A program made the position numbers and the translations under genes. The notes below the pieces were generated by a model that made no database searches, was not told the origin of the DNA, and was given only the letters and a program-made list of their open reading frames with translations. Shown in pieces: positions 18,132 through 28,875 of a DNA stretch of 56,003 bases (position 1 is its first letter; the number at the start of each line of letters is the position of its first letter). The stretch comes from Firmicutes bacterium HGW-Firmicutes-21 (GTDB taxonomy: Bacteria; Bacillota; Clostridia; Oscillospirales; CAG-382), in contig PGZT01000001.1 in the NCBI GenBank assembly GCA_002841455.1, forward strand, positions 81,919 through 137,921, written 5' to 3'.

Positions 18132-20234
18132 CTATACAGAATAAAGAATCTCGCCGTATGTGGGGAAGGGCCAGTACTTGGCTCCCACGAGTGTCTCAAG
18201 CTCATCTGCCGTGGCACGGAACTCCTGCATCTCGGCAAGAACCGTTTCCTTGTAGAACATTGCGTGTGCTGCTGTGTTACCGTTCTTATCGCCTGCCGAG
18301 ATAAGTGTTTTTTCTAACAAATCCGCCTTTTTAAACAATATGGAGGCAAGCCTGCCAAGCTTCTCCGCAAGTGCGACCTCGCTGTCGTCGGAAATATCTA
18401 TTCCTATCTCCTTTTTAGCTTTTGCCGCTCCCGCAAGCATCTTTCCGTATTCATAAACTGCGGGAAGAATGTCCTTGCGAACCATATCAAGCATTGTAAG
18501 CGCCTCTATGCTGATTACCTTGCAATAATTCTCGAGCAGCAGCTCGCAGCGGGAATGAATCTCAGCCTCGGTGAAAATCTTGTGCTTTGTAAACAGCTTG
18601 ATATTCTTCTCGCTGACAAAGTACGGGAGTGCCTCCGGTGTGCTCTTGAGGTTGAGCAACCCGCGTTGCTTTGCTTCAGCAACCCACTCTTTTGCATAAT
18701 TGTTGCCGTTGAAGATAATCCTTTTATGCTTAATAACGGTCTCCTTGATAAGAGCATCGACTTCCTTATTAAAATCGGATGCTTTTTCAAGACGATCGGC
18801 AAACTCGGACAGAGCCTCCGCAACTATGGTGTTGAGTATTATGTTCGGACCCGATACAGAAAAGGTCGAGCCGAGCATACGGAACTCGAATTTATTCCCC
18901 GTAAAAGCAAAGGGAGAGGTGCGGTTTCGGTCGGTGGTGTCCTTTTTAAAGTCGGGAAGAACATGGATTCCCGTCTGCATTGTATTAGCCTTGGTACAGT
19001 TATATTCGCAGCCCTTCTCTATTGAATCGAGTATTGAGGTCAACTCGTCTCCCAGGAATATGGACACGATTGCGGGAGGAGCCTCGTTAGCGCCGAGACG
19101 GTGGTCGTTACCCGCACTCGCAACGGAGATACGGAGCAAATCCTGATGCTCGTCGACCGCTTTTATAACAGCCGCAAGGAAGAGCATAAACCGTTTATTC
19201 TCTATCGGGTTTTTACCCGGCTTAAACAGATTTACACCGGTATTTGTGGCAAGCGACCAATTGTTATGCTTGCCGCTTCCGTTTACTCCGGCAAAGGGCT
19301 TCTCATGAAGCAGACACGCCATACCGTGCCGCTCGGCGACCTTTTTCATCATCTCCATGGTGAGCTGATTATGGTCGGTGGCAATGTTTGCGGTTGTATA
19401 AATAGGCGCAAGCTCGTGCTGTGCGGGAGCAACCTCGTTATGCTCGGTTTTTGCGAGTATTCCTATCTTCCACAGCTCCTTGTTAAGGTCCTGCATAAAC
19501 GCCATTACTCTGGGTCTTATTGAGCCGAAATAATGGTCCTCAAGCTCCTGTCCCTTGGGCGGCTTTGCGCCGAAAAGGGTTCTGCCCGAGAAACGGAGGT
19601 CCTTACGCTTGAGATAGCAACCCCTGTCGACAAGGAAGTATTCCTGCTCCGGACCGACCTCGGAGGTTACATGTGTTACAGCACTGTCTCCGAACAATTG
19701 CAAGACACGGCACGCTTGAGTGCTTATAACCTCCATAGAGCGGAGAAGGGGCATCTTTTTATCCAGAACCTCGCCGCTGTAGGAGCAGAAAATTGTGGGT
19801 ATGCATAGAGAGTTATCCTTTATAAACGCATATGAGGTAGGATCCCATGCGGTATAGCCTCTTGCTTCAAAGGTAGCTCTTAAGCCGCCGGAGGGGAAGG
19901 AGGAAGCATCCGGCTCGCCTTTTATCAGCTCTTTTCCGGAGAACTCCATAATAACCTTGCCGTCAGCCTGCGGAGATATAAAGCAGTCGTGCTTCTCGGC
20001 GGTAATGCCGGTCATGGGCTGGAACCAATGTGTATAATGAGTTACGCCTTTTTCGAGAGCCCAATCCTTCATCGCGGTTGCTACACTGTTAGCAACGGTG
20101 ATATCAAGATCGTTACCCTCCTCTATTGTTTTTTTGAGTGATCTGTATATTTCCTTAGGCAGCTTCTCTTTCATAACAGAGTCGCTGAAAACAAGTGAGC
20201 CGTAGATCTCCGGCACTTTCGAGTCGTTAATCAA
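18132..20234 (-). CDS. glnN: Glutamine synthetase type III
   Basis: 700 aa; [80 protein letters not shown]. Confidence 0.97.
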
Positions 20235-20270: not shown

Positions 20271-21278
20271 TTATAAAAGTTCGATACCGGCGGCGGAACA
20301 AATACTCTTTGTCTCGCTGTCCCAAATGGATACCTGAACCTCGCCTATATGAGCTTTTCCGAGCAGCAGCATACAGAACCTCGATTGTCCGATTCCGCCG
20401 CCTATAGAGAGCGGAAGAGTTCCGTCCAATAACAGGCTGTGGAACATCATGCTCTTTCTGTCCTCCGCACCCGCTGCGGCGAGCTGTGTCTCAAGTGAAG
20501 CGCTGTCAACACGGATACCCATCGAGGAAACCTCAAAAGCCATGCCGAGCAGCTCGTTCCAGAATATTATATCACCGTTGAGTTCCCAATCGTCGTAATC
20601 GGGAGCGCGGCCGTCGTGCTTAATGCCGGACTTGAGCTTTCCGCCTATCTTCATTACAAAAACCGTTTTATGTATTTTTGTGTAAGCGTCTTCTCTCTCT
20701 CTCGGGGTGAGGTCGGGATACATATCCTCAAGCTCCTGTGTGGTTACAAAGCTGACCTGATCAGACATCTCTGTGGTAAGCTGCGGAAAGAGCTGCTTAA
20801 TGTAAGCGTTTGTGTCGCACATAGCCTTGACTTCACTGCGGACAATTTCCTTCAGGAAATCAATATTCCGTTGCTGTGCGGTGATAACCTTTTCCCAGTC
20901 CCACTGATCCACATATATGGAATGCAGATTGTCCATAATCTCGTCTCTGCGGATTGCGTTCATGTCCGTATAAAGACCCTCGCTCACCGGGAAACCGTAT
21001 TTATACAGTGCATAACGCTTCCATTTTGCAAGCGAGTGAACAACCGCTCCGTCGGTTTTGGCATCGGCTATATCAAACGACACCGCGCGTTCCGTACCGT
21101 TAAGGTCATCATTCAAACCGGTTGCAGGCTCTACGAACAGCGGAGCCGAAACTCTCTTTATGTTCAGAGCCGCACTCAGCTTATCCTCGAAGCTTCTTTT
21201 AATTATACCGATTGCCATCTGTGTTTCGTAAAGGGACAAAACAGGTTTGTAATCTTTTGGAATAAGAGTTTTGCTCAT
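20271..21278 (-). CDS. asnA: Aspartate--ammonia ligase (asparagine synthetase A)
   Basis: GLNDDLNG, VHSLAKWKR, YVDQWDWE, HDGRAPDYDDW, SSMGIRV, GGGIGQSR. Start is ATG 21278 or 21284. Confidence 0.97.
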   Translation of the reverse strand: MSKTLIPKDYKPVLSLYETQMAIGIIKRSFEDKLSAALNIKRVSAPLFVEPATGLNDDLNGTERAVSFDIADAKTDGAVVHSLAKWKRYALYKYGFPVSEGLYTDMNAIRRDEIMDNLHSIYVDQWDWEKVITAQQRNIDFLKEIVRSEVKAMCDTNAYIKQLFPQLTTEMSDQVSFVTTQELEDMYPDLTPREREDAYTKIHKTVFVMKIGGKLKSGIKHDGRAPDYDDWELNGDIIFWNELLGMAFEVSSMGIRVDSASLETQLAAAGAEDRKSMMFHSLLLDGTLPLSIGGGIGQSRFCMLLLGKAHIGEVQVSIWDSETKSICSAAGIELL

Positions 21279-21300
21279 TTTCATACCGCCTTTTCTGTTT

Positions 21301-21356
21301 AATAATAAAATAGCAAAAGCACTGCGGGCAAGAATTTCCCACAGCGCCTTTGCTGT
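21301..21356 (-). promoter_or_regulatory. ANTAR-type attenuator in the asnA-glnN leader
   Basis: Hairpin ACAGC-AAAGGC-GCTGT (cf. ANTAR motif AGCAANGRRGCY) overlaps the 5' arm of a 17-bp terminator (AGCAAAGGCGCTGTGGG/CCCGCAGTGCTTTTGCT) followed by ATTTTATTATT. Confidence 0.75.
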
Positions 21357-21365
21357 ATGCAAGGT

Positions 21366-21394
21366 ATTATAAACCTTTTTTTTTACCTTGTCAA
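21366..21394 (-). promoter_or_regulatory. Consensus sigma-A promoter of asnA-glnN
   Basis: TTGACA-N17-TATAAT on the minus strand. Confidence 0.9.
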
Positions 21395-21444: not shown

Positions 21445-21473
21445 TTGACAAAATACATTTTTGTTTGTATAAT
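21445..21473 (+). promoter_or_regulatory. Consensus sigma-A promoter of the glutamate synthase operon
   Basis: TTGACA-N17-TATAAT. Confidence 0.9.
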
Positions 21474-21480
21474 GCTGTTA

Positions 21481-21552
21481 GGACAAAGGTGTCTGACATA
21501 TTAACGCAGAGGGCTATATATTTGTGTTATCATGTCAGGCACCTTTTTTATT
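21481..21552 (+). promoter_or_regulatory. ANTAR-type attenuator in the glutamate synthase operon leader
   Basis: Hairpin GGAC-AAAGGT-GTCT overlaps the 5' arm of a long terminator (AAAGGTGTCTGACAT/ATGTCAGGCACCTTT) followed by a T tract. Confidence 0.7.
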
Positions 21553-21577: not shown

Positions 21578-22684
21578 ATGTTAAGAGAAGGAACGAACGG
21601 ATACAGAATACCTGCCGGCTGCGCTATCTCGGGTATTTTTTCCAAGGAAGGTAAGCGTATCAGCGGCGAAAACATTATTAAATCCATCGGACTTATGCAC
21701 GAGCGTTCAAACGGCTTGGGCGGCGGATTTGCCGGATACGGAATTTATCCGGAATACAAGGACCTGTACGCATTCCATATATTTTATGATAATTTTAAAG
21801 CAAAGGACGAGTGCGAGCATTTTCTGGACCGTCATTTTGATATTGTAAATCTGTCAAAGATACCCACAAAAAAGATACAATCGATAACCAACGAGCCTCT
21901 TATATGGCGTTATTTTGTAAAGCCGTTGCCGACCAAGCTCGCAGACAGTCAGCTTGACGAGGACGAGTTCACAGCCCGTTCGGTTATCAAGGTTAATGTT
22001 AAGATAGAAGGAGCTTATATATTCTCAAGCGGAAAGAACATGGGCGTTTTTAAAGCGGTCGGTTATCCGGAGGATGTCGGCGAATTTTATAAATTGGATC
22101 AGTACGAGGGATATTGCTGGACCGCACACGGCAGGTATCCGACAAACACGCCGGGCTGGTGGGGCGGAGCCCATCCCTTCGCCCTGCTCGGCCTATCTAT
22201 AGTGCATAACGGCGAGATTTCTTCTTATGACGCAAACCGTCGATTTATCGAGATGTTTGGATATAACTGTACATTGCTGACCGATACGGAGGTTATTACA
22301 TATATTATAGATTATCTGTGCCGCAAGCAGGGATTAACAATAAAGGAAGCCGCCGAGGTCATTGCCGCTCCGTTCTGGAAGACAATCGACAAAAAGGACG
22401 AGAAGGACAGGGAGAGGCTGACCTATCTTCGCAACACCTTTGCGAGCCTGCTGATAACAGGACCTTTTTCTATACTTGTCGGCTTTGACGGCGGAATAAT
22501 GGCTCTTAATGACAGGCTCAAGCTGCGCTCTATGGTTGTAGGCGAAAAGGATGATACCGTGTACATTGCGAGCGAGGAAAGCGCCATCCGACTTATAGAG
22601 CCTAATCTTGACAGAGTTTTTGCTCCCAAGGGCGGCGAGCCGGTTATATACACCTTTAACGAGCGAATTAATTCCGAAAGATAA
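21578..22684 (+). CDS. Class II glutamine amidotransferase subunit of a split glutamate synthase (GltB1-like)
   Basis: Ntn nucleophile context GCAISG after a short propeptide; ERSNGLGGG, HGRYPTNT, AHPF, VHNGEI, TDTE, DRLKLR. AGGAG RBS before ATG 21578. Confidence 0.9.
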   Translation: MLREGTNGYRIPAGCAISGIFSKEGKRISGENIIKSIGLMHERSNGLGGGFAGYGIYPEYKDLYAFHIFYDNFKAKDECEHFLDRHFDIVNLSKIPTKKIQSITNEPLIWRYFVKPLPTKLADSQLDEDEFTARSVIKVNVKIEGAYIFSSGKNMGVFKAVGYPEDVGEFYKLDQYEGYCWTAHGRYPTNTPGWWGGAHPFALLGLSIVHNGEISSYDANRRFIEMFGYNCTLLTDTEVITYIIDYLCRKQGLTIKEAAEVIAAPFWKTIDKKDEKDRERLTYLRNTFASLLITGPFSILVGFDGGIMALNDRLKLRSMVVGEKDDTVYIASEESAIRLIEPNLDRVFAPKGGEPVIYTFNERINSER

Positions 22685-22821: not shown

Positions 22822-24327
22822 ATGTCAATTGATTTTATATATCCCGAATACGAAATAGCGAGAAACAAAGATCGCTGTATAAACTGCCGTGTCTGCGAGA
22901 AACAATGCGCAAACGAGGTACATAAATACCACGCAGACCTAAAAATGATGCAGGCTGACGACCTTAAATGCGTCAACTGTCAGCGTTGTGTATCGTTATG
23001 CCCTACAAGAGCGTTAAAGATTGTAAAAACGGATAATACATATAAGGAAAACGCTCATTGGAAGGGACGCACCATGTCCGAGATTTATCTTCAGGCAGGA
23101 AGCGGCGGCGTTTTGCTTTCCTCGATGGGAAACCCTGTCGATTACCCTATTTACTGGGATAAAATACTTATAAACGCCTCACAGGTAACAAACCCCTCCA
23201 TTGACCCGCTCAGAGAGCCTATGGAGACCAGAACCTTTCTCGGACAACGCCCTAACAAAATCGAGAGAGACAAGGACGGCAACATTGTAAACAATATGGC
23301 TCCTCAGCTGGAGCTGTCCACACCGATTATGTTCTCCGCAATGTCCTACGGCTCAATCAGCTACAACGCACACGAGAGTCTTGCGAGAGCGGCTACGGAG
23401 CTGGGCATATATTATAACACGGGAGAGGGCGGACTCCACGAGGATTTCTACAAATACGGAGCAAACACAATTGTTCAGGTAGCTTCGGGACGGTTCGGCG
23501 TACATAAGGATTACCTAAACGCAGGAGCCGCCGTCGAGATAAAAATGGGACAGGGTGCAAAGCCGGGTATCGGCGGACACCTGCCGGGCGCTAAAATTGT
23601 GGGTGATGTGTCAAGGACCAGAATGATACCCGAGGGGTCCGACGCAATTTCACCCGCTCCTCATCACGATATTTATTCCATCGAGGATTTACATCAGCTT
23701 GTAATGTCGCTTAAAGAGGCGACCAATTATACAAAACCCGTTATCGTAAAGATAGCGGCGGTGCATAATGTTGCAGCGATTGCGTCGGGAATAGCCCGCA
23801 GCGGAGCGGATATTATATCGCTCGACGGCTTCAGAGGCGGAACAGGTGCCGCTCCGACAAGAATCAGAGACAATGTGGGTATTCCGATAGAGCTTGCGCT
23901 GGCAAGCGTTGATAAGCGGCTTCGTGACGAGGGAATAAGGAACAATGTGTCGCTTGTTGTGGGCGGCTCGGTAAGAAGCAGCGCGGATGTCGTAAAGGCG
24001 ATTGCTCTTGGTGCGGATGCGGTTTATGTTGCGACCAGCGCATTGCTTGCTCTCGGTTGTCATCTTTGCAGGAGTTGCCACGGCGGTAAATGCAACTGGG
24101 GAATAGCAACACAACGGGCTGATTTGGTAAAAAGACTTAACCCGGAAATAGGATATAAACGGCTTGTCAACCTTGTCGAGGCTTGGACACATGAGATAAA
24201 GGAAATGATGGGCGGTATGGGCATTAACTCAATCGAAGCCCTGAAGGGCAACAGGCTTATGCTCAGAGGCGTGGGGCTTAACGAGAAGGAGCTCGAAATC
24301 TTAGGCATCTATCACGCAGGGCAATAA
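22822..24327 (+). CDS. FMN-binding subunit of a split glutamate synthase with an N-terminal 2x[4Fe-4S] domain (GltB2-like)
   Basis: Two CxxCxxCxxxC motifs; AMSYGS, NTGEGG, QVASGRFGV, EIKMGQGAKPGIGGHLPG, SPAPHHDIYSIEDL, and a [3Fe-4S] Cys motif. Confidence 0.95.
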   Translation: MSIDFIYPEYEIARNKDRCINCRVCEKQCANEVHKYHADLKMMQADDLKCVNCQRCVSLCPTRALKIVKTDNTYKENAHWKGRTMSEIYLQAGSGGVLLSSMGNPVDYPIYWDKILINASQVTNPSIDPLREPMETRTFLGQRPNKIERDKDGNIVNNMAPQLELSTPIMFSAMSYGSISYNAHESLARAATELGIYYNTGEGGLHEDFYKYGANTIVQVASGRFGVHKDYLNAGAAVEIKMGQGAKPGIGGHLPGAKIVGDVSRTRMIPEGSDAISPAPHHDIYSIEDLHQLVMSLKEATNYTKPVIVKIAAVHNVAAIASGIARSGADIISLDGFRGGTGAAPTRIRDNVGIPIELALASVDKRLRDEGIRNNVSLVVGGSVRSSADVVKAIALGADAVYVATSALLALGCHLCRSCHGGKCNWGIATQRADLVKRLNPEIGYKRLVNLVEAWTHEIKEMMGGMGINSIEALKGNRLMLRGVGLNEKELEILGIYHAGQ

Positions 24328-24379
24328 AACCCGAACGAGGCTTGGCTTATATAAAAAATTCCGAAGGGATAAATAATTG

Positions 24380-24838
24380 ATGAAACGAATTATAGTAAAC
24401 GAAAAATGGTGCTTGGGCTGCCGCCTATGCGAATATAACTGTGCTTTCGCAAATTCTGGGAGCATCGGTACGACACCGCTCGATATGGCAAAAGCGCTTA
24501 AGGATATTGTAATAAACCCCCGAATTAAGATAGAAGAAAAGGACGACATCTGCTTTGCGGTATCCTGCCGACATTGCAAGGAGCCTCTCTGCGTCAAGAG
24601 CTGTATAACGGGTGCGCTGACAAGGGTTGACGGCGTTATCCGCATAAACAAAGAGAAATGCGTCGAGTGCCACACCTGTGTGCTCGTATGCCCCTACGGC
24701 GCAATTATGCCGAGCGACGAGGGTGTTATGCAGAAATGCGAGCTTTGTGTACAGAACACGGGAGGAGAGCCGTTCTGCGTTAAGGGCTGTCCGAACAAGG
24801 CGATTGAATTTAAAGAACTTGGAGGGGATTCGGTATGA
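24380..24838 (+). CDS. 4Fe-4S dicluster (four-cluster) electron transfer protein
   Basis: CLGCRLCEYNC, CRHC..PLC..SC, CVECHTCVLVCP, KCELC...CVKGCP. Confidence 0.92.
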   Translation: MKRIIVNEKWCLGCRLCEYNCAFANSGSIGTTPLDMAKALKDIVINPRIKIEEKDDICFAVSCRHCKEPLCVKSCITGALTRVDGVIRINKEKCVECHTCVLVCPYGAIMPSDEGVMQKCELCVQNTGGEPFCVKGCPNKAIEFKELGGDSV

Positions 24839-26082
24839 AATATGTGATTATAGGTAACTCGGCGGCGGCAATAGGCTGCATTGAGGGTATAAGAAGCGTT
24901 GATTCTCAAGGGAGCATTACCGTTATCTCAAAGGAAACACAGCATACATATTCCCGTCCGCTCATATCCTATCTTCTGCTTGGTAAAACCGATTCGGAAA
25001 GAATGAAATACCGAAGCGATAATTTTTATGAAGAAAACAACTGTACCGTAATGTTCGGTACGGAGGTAACAAAAATATCTCCCGATAAAAAAGAGGTTCT
25101 GCTCGATAACGGAAAAAGCGTGAAGTACGATAAGCTGCTTGTCGCAACGGGCTCAAACCCCTTTGTTCCCCCGATAGAGGGAGTAAGCACCGCAAAAAGC
25201 GTACATACTTTTATGTCGCTCGACGATGCGCTTGCTCTGGAAAAGGATTTGACGCCGGACAGCAGGGTAATTATTCTCGGCGGCGGACTTATCGGTCTGA
25301 AATGTGCGGAGGGAATTCTTAAATCCGTTAAAAAGATTACCGTTATTGATATGGCTGACAGGATTCTGCCAAGCATACTCGATTCCGAGGGCTCTTCGAT
25401 AATACAAAAGCACCTTGAATCCAAGGGTATAGAGTTTCTGCTCGGAAACAGCATTTCCAAGGTTGACGGACAGAGAGCGATTCTAAAAAGCGGAGATATA
25501 ATCGAGTTCGACAGCCTTGTAATCGCCGTCGGAGTACGGGCGAATACCGCACTTGTGGCGGAGGCGGGCGGAACAGTAAACAGGGGAATTTACACTGATT
25601 TGAGCTGTAAAACAAGCCTTCACGACATATATTCGGCGGGTGACTGCAGCGAGAGCTACGACATTACCATAGGGCAGCCGAGAGTGCTTGCGCTTTTGCC
25701 TAACGCATATATGCAGGGCGAGGTTGCCGGAGTAAATATGGCAGGCGGAGATATGCTTTATGACCACGCCATACCTATGAATGCCATCGGTTTCTTTGGG
25801 CTGCATGTTATATCGGCGGGCAGCTACGAGGGTGAGTGCTACACCGTAGCAGAGGGAAACAACTATAAGAAGCTGTTTTACAACGACAATAACCTTTTCG
25901 GATATATTCTAATCGGAGAGGTTGCGAGAGCGGGTATTTATACGGCTCTGATTCGTGAGAAAACACCTCTCGACAGCATAGATTTTGAGCTTATCAAGGA
26001 TAAGCCGCAGCTTATGGCCTTTACAAAAAAGGACAGGGCGGCGCTGCTTATAAAGGAAGCTCTGCCAGACAATTGGCAATAA
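24835..26082 (+). CDS. FAD/NAD(P)-dependent pyridine nucleotide-disulfide oxidoreductase (likely reductase for the glutamate synthase)
   Basis: IIGNSAA, ATGS, GGGLIG, IYSAGD; ATGA overlap with the upstream gene. Confidence 0.9.
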   Translation: MKYVIIGNSAAAIGCIEGIRSVDSQGSITVISKETQHTYSRPLISYLLLGKTDSERMKYRSDNFYEENNCTVMFGTEVTKISPDKKEVLLDNGKSVKYDKLLVATGSNPFVPPIEGVSTAKSVHTFMSLDDALALEKDLTPDSRVIILGGGLIGLKCAEGILKSVKKITVIDMADRILPSILDSEGSSIIQKHLESKGIEFLLGNSISKVDGQRAILKSGDIIEFDSLVIAVGVRANTALVAEAGGTVNRGIYTDLSCKTSLHDIYSAGDCSESYDITIGQPRVLALLPNAYMQGEVAGVNMAGGDMLYDHAIPMNAIGFFGLHVISAGSYEGECYTVAEGNNYKKLFYNDNNLFGYILIGEVARAGIYTALIREKTPLDSIDFELIKDKPQLMAFTKKDRAALLIKEALPDNWQ

Positions 26083-26107: not shown

Positions 26108-26755
26108 ATGGAAAGAAACTGTATGGGCGAAAGGTATCTGGGCTGCGGCAGTGCGGGAGAGAGGATTATCCTCAACGGAACCCCCGGCAACGCACTCGGC
26201 GCATATCTTGACGGCTCGGAAATAATAATAAACGGAAACGCACAGGACGCTACGGGCGATACCATGAACGGCGGAAGCATAACCATCCACGGCAGCACCG
26301 GGGATGCTTGCGGTTATGCGATGCGCGGCGGCGAGATTTATGTCAGAGACAGTGCGGGCTACCGTGCCGGTATCCATATGAAGGCATATAAAGAGAAGCT
26401 GCCGGTGCTTGTAATCGGCGGCAGAGCGGGCAGCTTCCTCGGCGAATATCAGGCGGGCGGAATTATCATCGTACTCGGACTCGGCTTTGAGGGCAAGAGC
26501 GTGGTGGGATATTTTTGCGGAACGGGTATGCACGGAGGCAAGATTTATCTCCGCACAGAGGAGATGCCGCAGGACCTTCCCGAGCAGGTTATGGTCCGTC
26601 TTGCCACGGAAGAGGATATGAAGGATATCGACAGATATATTACAAGCTATTCGGAAAAGTTCGGGGTAAATAAAGAGGATATAACAAGCAGCGGCTTCTA
26701 TGTCTTGACTCCAAACACAAAAAATCCTTACAAAAGGCTTTACTGTTATAATTAA
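26108..26755 (+). CDS. GXGXG beta-helix subunit of a split glutamate synthase (GltB3-like)
   Basis: Repeated GxMxGG units (GDTMNGG, GYAMRGG, GEYQAGG, GTGMHGG); AAGGGA RBS. Confidence 0.9.
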   Translation: MERNCMGERYLGCGSAGERIILNGTPGNALGAYLDGSEIIINGNAQDATGDTMNGGSITIHGSTGDACGYAMRGGEIYVRDSAGYRAGIHMKAYKEKLPVLVIGGRAGSFLGEYQAGGIIIVLGLGFEGKSVVGYFCGTGMHGGKIYLRTEEMPQDLPEQVMVRLATEEDMKDIDRYITSYSEKFGVNKEDITSSGFYVLTPNTKNPYKRLYCYN

Positions 26756-26839
26756 TTGGTGTATAATAGCAGTGTTATGAGGGTTATAAAGGTTAAACCC
26801 TTAACAAGCCGTTTCGCCGGCGAGAAACGGCTTTGTTTT
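26739..26839 (+). promoter_or_regulatory. sigma-A promoter, leader hairpin and terminator upstream of the GS-like/ANTAR pair
   Basis: TTTACT-N17-TATAAT (26739-26767); hairpin AGGGTT-ATAAAGGTTA-AACCCT; terminator AAGCCGTTTC/GAAACGGCTT followed by TGTTTT. Confidence 0.55.
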
Positions 26840-26878: not shown

Positions 26879-28114
26879 ATGTTTTACACCGATAATGAGG
26901 TAATTGATTTTATAACGGAGAACGATGTTAAGTTTATCCGTCTTTCTTATTGCGATATTTACGGAGTACAAAAGAATATATCAATTATGCCGTCGGAGCT
27001 TAGACGAGCGTTCAGGGACGGAATATCCTTCGACGCTTCGGCTGTACGGGGCTTTGGCGACGAGGTAAGGTCGGATTTATTGCTGTTCCCCGATCCGTCG
27101 ACCCTCGCTCTTTTACCCTGGAGACCGTCACACGGCAGAGTTGTGCGGTTTTTTTGTGATATAAAGCATCCCGACGGCAGAACCTTTGAGATGGACAGCC
27201 GTCATATATTGAAAAAGGCGGTCCGCTATGCGGCGGGCAGGGGTTATACGGTCAGCTTCGGTGCGGAATGTGAGTTTTATCTTTTCAAGTGCGATGCGGA
27301 GGGAAACCCCACCGACATTCCCTTTGACAACGCCGGGTATATGGATGTTTCCCCGCTTGACAAGGGCGAGAATGTAAGACGGGAGATCTGTCTTACGCTT
27401 GAGGAAATGGGTATTATCCCCGAGGCCTCTCATCACGAGGAGGGACCCGGACAAAATGAGATTGATTTCAGATACAGCGAGCCGCTTGTCTCCGCCGATA
27501 ATGTTACAACCTTTAAGTGGGTTGTGAAAACGGTTGCGGCGAGAAACGGACTGTTTGCCACCTTTGACCCTAAACCGATTCCGGACAAGAGCGGAAACGG
27601 CTTCCATATAAATATGGCTCCCAAGCTAATCGGCGGAGTAACCGAGCAGGCTGTGTATGACAGCTTCATGGCGGGTGTTCTCGACCGTGCGGCGGAGCTA
27701 TGTGCTTTTCTTAACCCGACAGAGGCATCCTTCCTCCGTTTGGGAGAGAATAAAGCACCCAAATATATTACCTGGTCCGAGCAGAACCGCTCACAGCTGA
27801 TAAGAATACCTGCCGGAGACGGCGAATACAAGCGTATCGAGCTGCGTTCTCCCGATTGCAGAACCAATCACTATATCGCATATGCATTGCTTATATATGC
27901 GGGCATGGAAGGCATTGAGAATAAAAAAGTCCCACCCGTTCCGATTGACCTAAATCTTTACAAAGCGGATAAGGAGATTATAGATAAGCTAAGCAAGCTG
28001 CCCGAGAGTCTTTCCGAGGCTGTCGAGATAGCCTGCCGCAGCGAATTCATCGGCAGAGTGCTGCCCAAGCGGGTAGCCGAGGCGTATAATCCGCTTTACG
28101 AGAAGCAGGAATAG
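26879..28114 (+). CDS. Glutamine synthetase type I-like protein (flap Glu missing, C-terminally shortened)
   Basis: FDASAV, ECEFYLF, HHEEGPGQNEIDF, GNGFHIN, NRSQLIRIP and RIELRSPD are present, but RLGENKAP replaces RLVPGYEAP. About 411 aa. Confidence 0.85.
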   Translation: MFYTDNEVIDFITENDVKFIRLSYCDIYGVQKNISIMPSELRRAFRDGISFDASAVRGFGDEVRSDLLLFPDPSTLALLPWRPSHGRVVRFFCDIKHPDGRTFEMDSRHILKKAVRYAAGRGYTVSFGAECEFYLFKCDAEGNPTDIPFDNAGYMDVSPLDKGENVRREICLTLEEMGIIPEASHHEEGPGQNEIDFRYSEPLVSADNVTTFKWVVKTVAARNGLFATFDPKPIPDKSGNGFHINMAPKLIGGVTEQAVYDSFMAGVLDRAAELCAFLNPTEASFLRLGENKAPKYITWSEQNRSQLIRIPAGDGEYKRIELRSPDCRTNHYIAYALLIYAGMEGIENKKVPPVPIDLNLYKADKEIIDKLSKLPESLSEAVEIACRSEFIGRVLPKRVAEAYNPLYEKQE

Positions 28115-28125
28115 GGGGCGTTGGT

Positions 28126-28713
28126 ATGTTGTTCGGTAAAACGCCGTACAGCGTGCTGGTCGTTTCGAGCGGAGAAAAAATTAACGATTTTCTAAACGAG
28201 GTTCTTGGGTCAAATATGTACTCGCCCGTCATATTCACAAAAAACGGGGGGGAGGCAAGAAACATTCTTATATCACAGAGCTTTGACCTTGTTATAATAA
28301 ACTCCCCTCTTAGTGATGAATTCGGCAGCGAGCTTGCCTTTAAGCTCACCGAAAATGCGGTATGCGGTGTAATAATGATTATAAAAAGCGATGTGTTCGA
28401 CGAGGTCAGCGAACGGGTTGAGCAATACGGAGTTCTTGCGGTGAGCAAGCCGATTTCCCGTGTGCTTTTCTTGCAGATTCTGAAAATATCCATCGCTACT
28501 CTCGAGCGGTTGAAAAGGCTTGAGCGGGAAAATAAAAAGTTATCGTTTAAAATAGAGGAAATAAGGCTTATTGACAGAGCAAAATGGGTTCTTATAGAGT
28601 ATCTGAAAATGAGCGAGCCGCAAGCGCACCGATATATCGAAAAACAGGCTATGGATATGCGGATAACACGGCGTGAGGTTGCCGAGAGCATTATAAAAAC
28701 ATATGAAAATTAG
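28126..28713 (+). CDS. ANTAR-domain antiterminator with a pseudo-receiver domain (NitR/AmiR-like)
   Basis: C-terminal IDRAKWVLIE...MSEPQAHRYIEKQAMDMRITRREVAE. N-terminal receiver fold reads VLVVSS ... DLVIINSP ... SKP. Confidence 0.92.
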   Translation: MLFGKTPYSVLVVSSGEKINDFLNEVLGSNMYSPVIFTKNGGEARNILISQSFDLVIINSPLSDEFGSELAFKLTENAVCGVIMIIKSDVFDEVSERVEQYGVLAVSKPISRVLFLQILKISIATLERLKRLERENKKLSFKIEEIRLIDRAKWVLIEYLKMSEPQAHRYIEKQAMDMRITRREVAESIIKTYEN

Positions 28714-28736
28714 TTGCTTTTCATATGTTTTTATAA
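28691..28736. repeat. 19-bp perfect inverted repeat spanning the ANTAR gene stop codon
   Basis: TTATAAAAACATATGAAAA-N8-TTTTCATATGTTTTTATAA. Confidence 0.85.
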
Positions 28737-28846: not shown

Positions 28847-28875
28847 TTGACAAGAACGGTTTTTTGCTGTAGATT
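28847..28875 (+). promoter_or_regulatory. sigma-A promoter of guaA-pyrG-nadE
   Basis: TTGACA-N17-TAGATT. Confidence 0.6.

Follow-up and report, generated by a model that had tools for sequence, protein, structure and literature searches.

In Clostridium saccharobutylicum and Clostridium acetobutylicum, the ANTAR protein encoded by the glnA-nitR gene pair is said to antiterminate transcription of the genes for GS (glutamine synthetase) and GOGAT (glutamate synthase) under nitrogen limitation (Stutz et al. 2007 and Fierro-Monti et al. 1992, as recounted in PMC6316151 and PMC4676874). A cluster in Clostridium thermocellum comprises, according to the accounts given in PMC4676874, PMC9888227, and PMC5887222, Clo1313_2030 (a receiver-ANTAR protein), Clo1313_2031 (a type I GS), and Clo1313_2032 to Clo1313_2036 (GOGAT); deletion of glnA in this organism is reported to elicit a nitrogen-starvation response despite raised glutamine, as summarized in PMC10967112 from the work of Rydzak 2017. 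Here we describe a derived version of the glnA-nitR module of Clostridium, located in a 56,003-nucleotide stretch of Firmicutes bacterium HGW-Firmicutes-21 (contig PGZT01000001.1, positions 81,919 to 137,921; this whole stretch is hereafter called the window, and coordinates count from its first letter). It consists of a gene for a GS-like protein (26879 to 28114) and, starting 11 nt past its stop codon, a gene for an ANTAR antiterminator (28126 to 28713), both on the plus strand.

Three further lines of earlier work bear on this gene pair. In AmiC-AmiR and NasS-NasT, an ANTAR protein that lacks the receiver aspartate is held by a ligand-binding partner encoded adjacently, as laid out in the relevant portions of PMC3369931, PMC3369936, and PMC3795266. 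The GS of Bacillus subtilis controls TnrA by contact and reports glutamine status, according to the summary in PMC6316151. ANTAR regulons that include glutamate synthase, PII, Amt, and GS genes in Firmicutes have already been reported by Ramesh et al. 2012 (PMC3369931, in the part that treats these genes), and the RNA side of our locus is therefore a variant of a known theme. The unrecognized feature is a large subfamily of truncated type I GS (GSI) proteins, with lysine in place of the flap glutamate, seen solely beside ANTAR genes; our literature search found no account of such a subfamily or of any ANTAR protein that has a GS as its partner. We propose that the locus is a kinase-free nitrogen antitermination system in which the GS-like protein is the sensor partner that controls the ANTAR protein, a reading that is the best supported of those weighed here and that we put at about an even chance of being correct. 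Two of its components, the kinase-free receiver and the antitermination regulon, are well supported.

The GS-like protein and its ANTAR neighbor

The GS-like protein (411 amino acids) has a GSI-alpha fold. Pfam recognizes both GS domains (Gln-synt_N, 80 bits; Gln-synt_C, 283 bits), the C-domain match stopping at profile position 322 of 344, and the GSI-alpha equivalog model TIGR00653 gives 342.2 bits, which is below its curated cutoff of 429.15. An AlphaFold2 model (predicted local distance difference test score, 90) matches the GS structures of Methanosarcina mazei (8tfk) and B. subtilis (4lni) with a Foldseek template modeling (TM) score of 0.95. GSI-alpha proteins are also its best structure-sequence matches (334 bits to M. 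mazei GS), followed by weaker ones, at 164 to 167 bits, to a "type III" glutamate-ammonia ligase (7cql) and a glutamate--methylamine ligase (9qur); NCBIfam likewise matches gamma-glutamylputrescine synthetase and TIGR03105 (the "type III" glutamate-ammonia ligase) more weakly. One member of the family carries the NCBI name "type I glutamate--ammonia ligase."

The first-pass annotation of the window had described this protein as a GSI relative that keeps its ligand-binding motifs and has lost the flap glutamate and the C-terminal helix, and all of this was borne out. Positions 27737 to 27760 translate to RLGENKAP. In the HMMER alignment this motif stands against rlvpgyeap of M. mazei GS, in a loop shortened by one residue, with Lys292 (codon 27752 to 27754) in place of the flap glutamate (E327 in Escherichia coli numbering). 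Alignment to canonical GSI proteins further indicates that an 11-residue hairpin after the GxGxH motif is missing, as are the last ∼25 residues; the latter include the C-terminal helix, which locks the two hexamer rings of GSI together. The rest of the protein is well conserved: across 62 members of its clade, mean column identity is 66%, with ∼80 invariant positions. D52, E130/E132, Y154, H185/H186/E187, E194, and H243, as well as R287, R304, R309, and R319/E321/R323, are invariant or nearly so. Of these, E130/E132, E187, E194, H243, R287, R304, R309, E321, and R323, which align to M. mazei residues and are invariant or >90% kept, correspond to the metal, ATP, and glutamate ligands that in E. 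coli numbering are E129/E131, E212, E220, H269, R321, R339, R344, E357, and R359. The ammonium-site motif FDGSSI reads FDASA[IV] throughout the clade of GS proteins with the shortened flap.

The ANTAR protein (195 amino acids) scores 63.5 bits against the Pfam ANTAR model (PF03861; cutoff, 27.3) and only 25.6 bits against Response_reg, under the cutoff of 30.2. Its structure model comprises five strands and five helices in a receiver fold, a long coiled-coil helix (residues 112 to 160), and a three-helix ANTAR bundle, and is closest in fold to EutV, Rv1626, and AmiR (TM score of 0.78 to EutV 6ww6 and 0.60 to 0.66 to AmiR). In alignment with Rv1626 (1s8n), vliaedea corresponds to vlvvssge and dlvimdvkmp to dlviinspls; the acidic pocket is thus Ser14-Ser15, and the phospho-acceptor position is Asn59 (codon 28300 to 28302, within 28285 to 28308, which translates to DLVIINSP), just as had been noticed at first pass. 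These features are shared by the family: among the 120 best ANTAR homologs, S14 is found in 107 and N59 in 114, an acidic residue at position 14 or 15 in none, and K108/P109 are kept, while the partner ANTAR proteins of related GS-like loci have Ser at position 14 in 74 of 78 cases and Asn at the phospho-site in 70 of 78. The sequence therefore supports the conclusion that aspartate phosphorylation of this receiver would be impossible. We also noted that 113 of the 120 homologs have Lys or Arg at residue 87 (28384 to 28386), which lies just past strand 4, at the place where receivers typically carry the switch Thr/Ser.

The claim that the window holds no histidine kinase also stands: HATPase_c, the histidine-kinase ATPase domain, has no match in it, and the nearest one (C46:63331) lies ∼18 kb before its start. 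The source genome contains a single PII domain, which is fused to AmtB in a 577-residue AmtB-PII protein, making a free PII partner for the ANTAR protein unlikely, though it may have other inputs.

Gene linkage and flap-residue change across Clostridia

Relatives of the GS-like protein are encoded by at least 579 species-representative genomes, from Oscillospiraceae, Christensenellaceae, Lachnospiraceae, Acutalibacteraceae, and other taxa. We read the loci of the best 80 of these. The gene is an open frame in all 80, and an ANTAR gene lies directly downstream in 77; the other three loci end at a contig edge, so that the ANTAR gene is present wherever there is room for it (77 of 77). The gap between the two genes has a median of 31 nt and is <100 nt in 62 of 67 cases, with two overlaps. 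As a sample independent of GS similarity rank, 200 genomes were drawn evenly from the class Clostridia and searched with the ANTAR and then with the GS-like protein, and all ANTAR neighborhoods were read. An ANTAR homolog, one each, is present in 71 genomes; a GSI gene precedes 63 of the 69 ANTAR genes with room upstream. Conversely, 50 of the 51 genomes with a GS ≥50% identical to the GS-like protein also have the ANTAR gene, the exception being at a contig end. The GS-like and ANTAR genes are thus near-obligately linked. Two variant arrangements deserve mention. At loci L141 and L163 the ANTAR gene comes straight after the GXGXG glutamate-synthase gene with no intervening GS gene, and one genome (G008) carries two GS-like/ANTAR pairs, one with the Lys flap (L011) and one whose GS-like protein reads RLGKGYAP (L122).

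Replacement of the flap glutamate by a basic residue is the rule among close relatives: the 80 related loci have Lys or Arg at this position in 76 and Glu in 4, and the 120 best database homologs have Lys in 116, Glu in 2, and Arg and Met in 1 each. In the wider class sample, the 63 linked GS proteins divide into 23 with Lys or Arg, 6 with another non-Glu or an unrecognizable flap, 20 with Glu in a short loop, and 14 with a canonical long flap; the flap glutamate is therefore absent from 29 of 63 ANTAR-linked GS genes. Some of these go further. The GS-like proteins of L183 and L186 (391 to 395 residues) have Ser or Phe at the flap, and the arginines of the NRSxLIRIP motif are replaced (EESELMYIG and KKSELIYIE); their genes are intact and are followed by an Asn-type ANTAR gene. 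By sequence, these two are clear pseudoenzymes.

The first-pass annotation had suggested that flap-glutamate loss might go together with Asp-less ANTAR neighbors and with GSIII, the type III GS. The first part held in one direction only. For comparison, we took 10 second GS-family genes from genomes with a Lys-flap pair. Nine of them have no ANTAR neighbor, and every one of these keeps the flap glutamate; the tenth (L122), which lacks it, is followed by an ANTAR gene. In all material examined, flap-glutamate loss is confined to ANTAR-linked copies. The reverse does not hold, since in Clostridiaceae the ANTAR gene next to a GS gene of the RLVPGYEAP type encodes an Asp-less receiver at eight loci and one with Asp at two; an ANTAR protein with the full DD...D receiver never adjoins GS in that sample. 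The GS-ANTAR link and the Asp-less receiver thus predate loss of the flap glutamate. As to GSIII, genomes with Glu-flap GS-ANTAR pairs also hold GSIII-type genes, so that co-occurrence with GSIII does not separate the flap types. What does hold is that the Lys-flap protein is never seen as the sole GS: at least one further GS-family gene was found in 50 of 50 genomes searched among the 80 related ones and in the source genome. In another genome (G009), the ∼550 nt read downstream of a GS gene with a short Glu flap (L121; RFGSFEAP, in a frame of 445 residues) contain no ANTAR gene; a Lys-flap/ANTAR pair is found elsewhere in that genome.

In a quick GSI tree (midpoint rooting; support by the Shimodaira-Hasegawa-like approximate likelihood ratio test only), a single long branch (0.99 changes per site; support, 100) carries all short-flap GS proteins and sets them apart from canonical GSI, whose side of the tree includes the ANTAR-adjacent Clostridiaceae GS proteins. 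Within the short-flap clade, the Lys-flap proteins of ∼400 residues form a supported subclade (99), with Glu-flap proteins of ∼438 residues and one Lys-flap protein of 439 residues basal to it. The alignment is suggestive of an order in which loop shortening and the change from FDGSSI to FDASA came first, then Glu to Lys, and then loss of the hairpin and C-terminal helix; it is suggestive only, because the tree is quick and unrooted and gives no secure order of events.

Leader RNAs, regulon, and layout of the locus

ANTAR-like target RNAs had been proposed at first pass to precede both nitrogen-assimilation operons of the window. Both leaders are real; each contains a single hexaloop hairpin, not the classical pair. 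The leader of the GOGAT/GS-like/ANTAR operon (21481 to 21552, plus strand; fold, −32.9 kcal/mol; z, −7.9) has, at about +2 of the transcript, the hairpin GGAC-AAAGGU-GUCU, which overlaps a long terminator at its base. In the divergent leader of the asnA-GSIII unit (21301 to 21355, minus strand), the hairpin is CAGC-AAAGGC-GCUG; a 17-bp terminator stem begins with its loop and 3' half and leads into a U-run (fold of 21296 to 21362, −29.3 kcal/mol; z, −5.3); the same element is present in the closest relative, L004. Both hairpins lie only a few nucleotides from the predicted start of transcription, right after promoters that match the consensus at 12 of 12 positions (TTGACA-17-TATAAT; 21445 to 21473 on the plus strand and 21366 to 21394 on the minus strand). 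This leaves no room for an upstream P1, and a second hexaloop hairpin was not found by eye in the leaders. In general terms, the element is a 4-bp hairpin with a closing C-G pair and a hexaloop AAnGnn, more narrowly AAnGGn (consensus, AAAGGC), which obeys the A1/G4 rule for ANTAR targets; its loop and 3' half supply an intrinsic terminator with its 5' base.

Early pattern scans for this element were too permissive (97 matches versus 21 to 37 in shuffled sequence, and 30 versus 8 to 21) and were superseded by a fold-based scan. The latter gave 20 matches in the source genome versus 1 to 10 in ten shuffles, the convincing ones being the two window leaders and sites before amtB-PII (L123, C28:5532-5653; two complete attenuators in tandem after a consensus-like promoter) and before asnB, for a glutamine-hydrolyzing asparagine synthase (L124, C88:10571-10618; GAAC-AAGGGC-GUUC with a terminator). 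In the related loci, 1.22 Mb in all, it gave 118 attenuator matches versus 5, 2, and 4 in shuffles. They precede genes for GSIII (n = 33), the GS-like protein (27), the GOGAT amidotransferase (20, from the 80 loci), pyrG (5), asnA (1), guaA (1), and a fused gltB (1); the remaining 30 lie elsewhere. In a search that did not demand pairing of the stem, all four pairs still form in 88 of 105 nitrogen-gene leaders versus 30 of 153 elsewhere; the stems covary (AGGC/GUCU, GAGC/GUUC, GAAC/GUUC, AAAC/GUUU, and CAGC/GCUG). Tandem pairs of complete attenuators occur in several GSIII and amtB leaders. These data support the conclusion that the hairpin-terminator leaders define a nitrogen regulon. Rfam, at gathering thresholds, has no family match anywhere in the window.

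The pyrG (CTP synthase) matches are at L012, L014, L039, L052, and L080, and the guaA (GMP synthase) match is at L011; since both products are glutamine amidotransferases, the regulon extends into nucleotide synthesis. The guaA, pyrG, and nadE genes that follow the ANTAR gene in the window have no attenuator there. The GS-like gene of the window has an atypical leader (26739 to 26839, plus strand) composed of a promoter-like site (26739 to 26767), an 8-bp hairpin with a 10-nt loop, AUAAAGGUUA, at 26778 to 26803, and a terminator (26806 to 26833) with a U-run; the loop contains AAAGG, and this leader is absent from L004. On the opposite strand, 26802 to 26838 reads as a canonical hexaloop hairpin (AAAC-AAAGCC-GUUU) plus a stem with a poor U-run. 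Antisense RNA has been described for the Clostridium glnA region, and by analogy this minus-strand element may have an antisense role.

The gene pair belongs to a nitrogen-assimilation island in which asnA and GSIII, on the minus strand, diverge from the GOGAT/GS-like/ANTAR operon on the plus strand. asnA (20271 to 21284; Pfam AsnA, 343.6 bits) encodes aspartate-ammonia ligase; GSIII (glnN; 18132 to 20234), the second gene of that unit, starts 36 nt past the asnA stop. GSIII had been called intact, and it is indeed a complete open reading frame of 700 codons (Pfam GSIII_N, 272 bits; Gln-synt_C-ter, 148 bits; Gln-synt_C, 76 bits) that keeps the flap glutamate (RLGANEAP). The source genome (a 1.55-Mb assembly, 91% complete) has only two GS-family genes, GSIII and the GS-like gene, and one ANTAR gene; GSIII is likely its catalytic glutamine synthetase. 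The plus-strand operon begins with five GOGAT subunit genes, encoding the class II glutamine amidotransferase subunit (21578 to 22684; Pfam GATase_2), the flavin mononucleotide (FMN) subunit with an N-terminal 4Fe-4S domain (22822 to 24327; Glu_synthase, 474.7 bits), a small 4Fe-4S ferredoxin-domain subunit whose start codon is uncertain (24377 to 24838; Fer4_11, 54.8 bits), an NAD(P)/FAD pyridine-nucleotide-disulfide oxidoreductase subunit (24835 to 26082; Pyr_redox_2, 202 bits), and the GXGXG subunit (26108 to 26755; GXGXG, 98.4 bits). It probably ends at an A+T-rich hairpin with a U-run that spans the ANTAR stop codon (28697 to 28734); a promoter-like site for guaA follows (28847 to 28875, plus strand).

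Proposed sensing mechanism, alternatives, and known systems

We envisage that the ANTAR protein binds the hairpin of the nascent leader, which would make the lowest ∼7 nt of the terminator stem, beside the U-tract, unavailable and let RNA polymerase read through. The GS-like protein would no longer be the glutamine synthetase of the cell, a job that GSIII could do, and would keep its sites for nucleotide, metal, and glutamate/glutamine as a means of reading nitrogen status. In nitrogen excess, the glutamine-loaded GS-like protein would hold the Asp-less receiver and so keep the antiterminator off the RNA; in nitrogen limitation, it would release the ANTAR protein. More speculatively, the conserved Lys/Arg at the flap position may fill the ammonium pocket. 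Much as in AmiC-AmiR, NasS-NasT, and B. subtilis GS with TnrA/GlnR, the GS-like protein is probably retained because it serves regulation together with the ANTAR protein, reading the status of glutamine and nucleotides; it may do so by binding or sequestering the ANTAR protein directly. A sensor role fits the comparative sequence data, and in many gut Clostridia the GS-like/ANTAR pair probably acts as the principal nitrogen switch. In a bolder form, to which we give somewhat less than an even chance, a GSI subfamily spread over hundreds of Clostridia species would have abandoned glutamine synthesis to become a dedicated glutamine/energy sensor that holds the Asp-less ANTAR protein, an "anti-antiterminator" master switch for a regulon of amtB-PII, GSIII, GOGAT, asnA, asnB, and pyrG, with the canonical GlnA of glnA-nitR pairs already moonlighting likewise.

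The sensor role has to be weighed against the possibility, which we judge rather unlikely, that the GS-like protein still functions as a glutamine synthetase, with the lysine tolerated or its place taken by another residue, and is simply cotranscribed with the ANTAR gene, as happens in classical glnA-nitR; the ANTAR protein would then sense through a receiver ligand, the AmtB-fused PII domain, or an unlinked partner. Several observations speak against a sensor. All catalytic residues but one are retained, the metal, ATP, and glutamate ligands among them, in a fold nearly identical to that of active GSI-alpha enzymes, and judged by its sequence the protein may still be an enzyme; in most members a glutamate, not invariant, stands two residues before the lysine and could partly substitute for the lost one. 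Asp-less ANTAR genes also neighbor canonical-flap GS genes, as in the eight Clostridiaceae loci and the 14 class-sample pairs above, and because a canonical GS has the same neighbor, adjacency may simply be that of a regulator beside its main target. No GS gene lies upstream of 6 of the 69 class-sample ANTAR genes with room for one, and two Clostridiaceae loci (L086 and L087) have orphan Asp-less ANTAR genes with no GS gene within 1.5 kb. (These two ANTAR proteins are ∼32% identical to the Clostridium cuniculi partner at L056, have Asn [L086] or Ser [L087] at the phospho-site, and are encoded near genes that include nitroreductase-like and acyl-CoA-synthetase-like ones.) Mirror-tree analysis shows no specific coevolution signal, since the distance-matrix correlation of GS-like with ANTAR proteins (r = 0.82 to 0.84) is no stronger than that of either protein with GSIII (0.84 to 0.87 for GS-like/GSIII). 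No fused GS-ANTAR protein turned up among the longer homologs, which is a weak test, and the leaders carry one hexaloop hairpin where studied ANTAR dimers recognize two. The deregulation seen in C. thermocellum may reflect a polar effect of the glnA deletion on the ANTAR gene. A complex prediction with one copy of each protein gave a score of 0.00 and no verdict, and nothing follows from such a one-copy test. A working enzyme would also be in keeping with the regulated leader in front of the GS-like gene itself and with the enzyme name that NCBI gives to one family member.

The pattern of flap change speaks against a working glutamine synthetase. The glutamate is kept in canonical GSI and in the GSIII of the window, and GSII likewise keeps it, whereas in the GS-like proteins a basic residue is fixed; none of the nine unlinked second GS genes has lost it, and neither the 50 searched related genomes nor the source genome relies on a Lys-flap protein as its only GS. 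The helix that ties the rings together is gone, some linked copies have dispensed with the phosphate-binding arginines as well while their genes remain intact, and the sole PII domain of the genome is fused to AmtB. We consider it improbable that the protein is instead a gamma-glutamyl ligase whose amine substrate is not ammonia, or the maker of a small signal read by the ANTAR receiver (an enzyme-coupled sensor). Other branches of the GS family have changed ammonium-site residues along with substrate, and the change to FDASA[IV] across the short-flap clade, together with the weaker matches to gamma-glutamylputrescine synthetase, TIGR03105, and glutamate--methylamine ligase 9qur, would suit such a shift; yet the GSI-alpha matches are far stronger, roughly twice the bit score of those to 7cql and 9qur, the gene context concerns purely the assimilation of ammonium and glutamine, genes for amine catabolism are absent from the vicinity, and lineages that have also lost ATP-site arginines speak against any ligase chemistry. 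Lastly, the Lys-flap gene could be a decaying, functionless GS copy beside an ANTAR protein that is constitutive or driven by its own abundance. The missing catalytic residue, hairpin, and C-terminal helix, and in the window a terminator between the GOGAT genes and the GS-like gene, might be read this way, but the spread of open frames over so many species, the conservation of the sequence, and a clade that is internally conserved on its long, fully supported branch make decay very improbable.

If the GS-like protein is indeed a sensor, one gene pair and a 14-nt RNA hairpin would explain kinase-free induction of ammonium uptake, GS/GOGAT, and asparagine synthesis in abundant gut and rumen Clostridia, where nitrogen control is largely unknown, and the principle of glutamine synthetase as a sensor, established in B. 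subtilis with DNA-binding regulators, would extend to an RNA-binding antiterminator. The family would then offer a natural series from a moonlighting Glu-flap enzyme through the Lys-flap form to pseudoenzymes without ATP-site arginines. The hairpin-terminator element can be used for nitrogen-regulon prediction in uncultured Clostridia, and the model supplies a testable mechanism for the unexplained deregulation that follows deletion of the type I GS in C. thermocellum, which is relevant to engineering of that organism.

The C. thermocellum cluster Clo1313_2030 to Clo1313_2036 consists, as far as its published descriptions go, of the same seven genes as the operon described here (GATase II, glutamate synthase, 4Fe-4S, two GOGAT genes, type I GS, and receiver-ANTAR), and the passages of the cited sources that deal with it propose no functional link between GS and ANTAR. 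The reported outcome of the glnA deletion would fit a negative role of that GS. The glnA-nitR module resembles our locus in that a GSI gene is directly followed by an ANTAR gene and terminators are found in GS and GOGAT leaders; it differs in that the Clostridiaceae GS has RLVPGYEAP or close variants and ∼443 residues, whereas the GS-like protein has the lysine and lacks the 11-residue hairpin and C-terminal helix, and in that glutamate synthase is here split into five subunit genes. Our leaders share with the ANTAR dual-hexaloop motif (PMC3369931, whose supplementary tables may list some of them) a short stem, a hexaloop with A1 and G4, overlap with a terminator, and nitrogen genes downstream, and depart from it in having a single hairpin near the transcript start and, in several GSIII and amtB leaders, complete attenuators in tandem.

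AmiC-AmiR of Pseudomonas and NasS-NasT of Paracoccus likewise combine a pseudo-receiver ANTAR protein with an adjacent gene for a ligand-binding partner, a complex that in our case would be formed with a candidate partner of GS fold; AmiC and NasS, in contrast, have periplasmic-binding-protein folds and bind amide or nitrate. The candidate sensor itself resembles the B. subtilis GS that acts on TnrA and GlnR, a GSI-alpha protein whose structure (4lni) it matches closely. There, however, a working enzyme controls DNA-binding partners of the MerR type, whereas here the flap glutamate has been lost and the regulator is an RNA-binding one.

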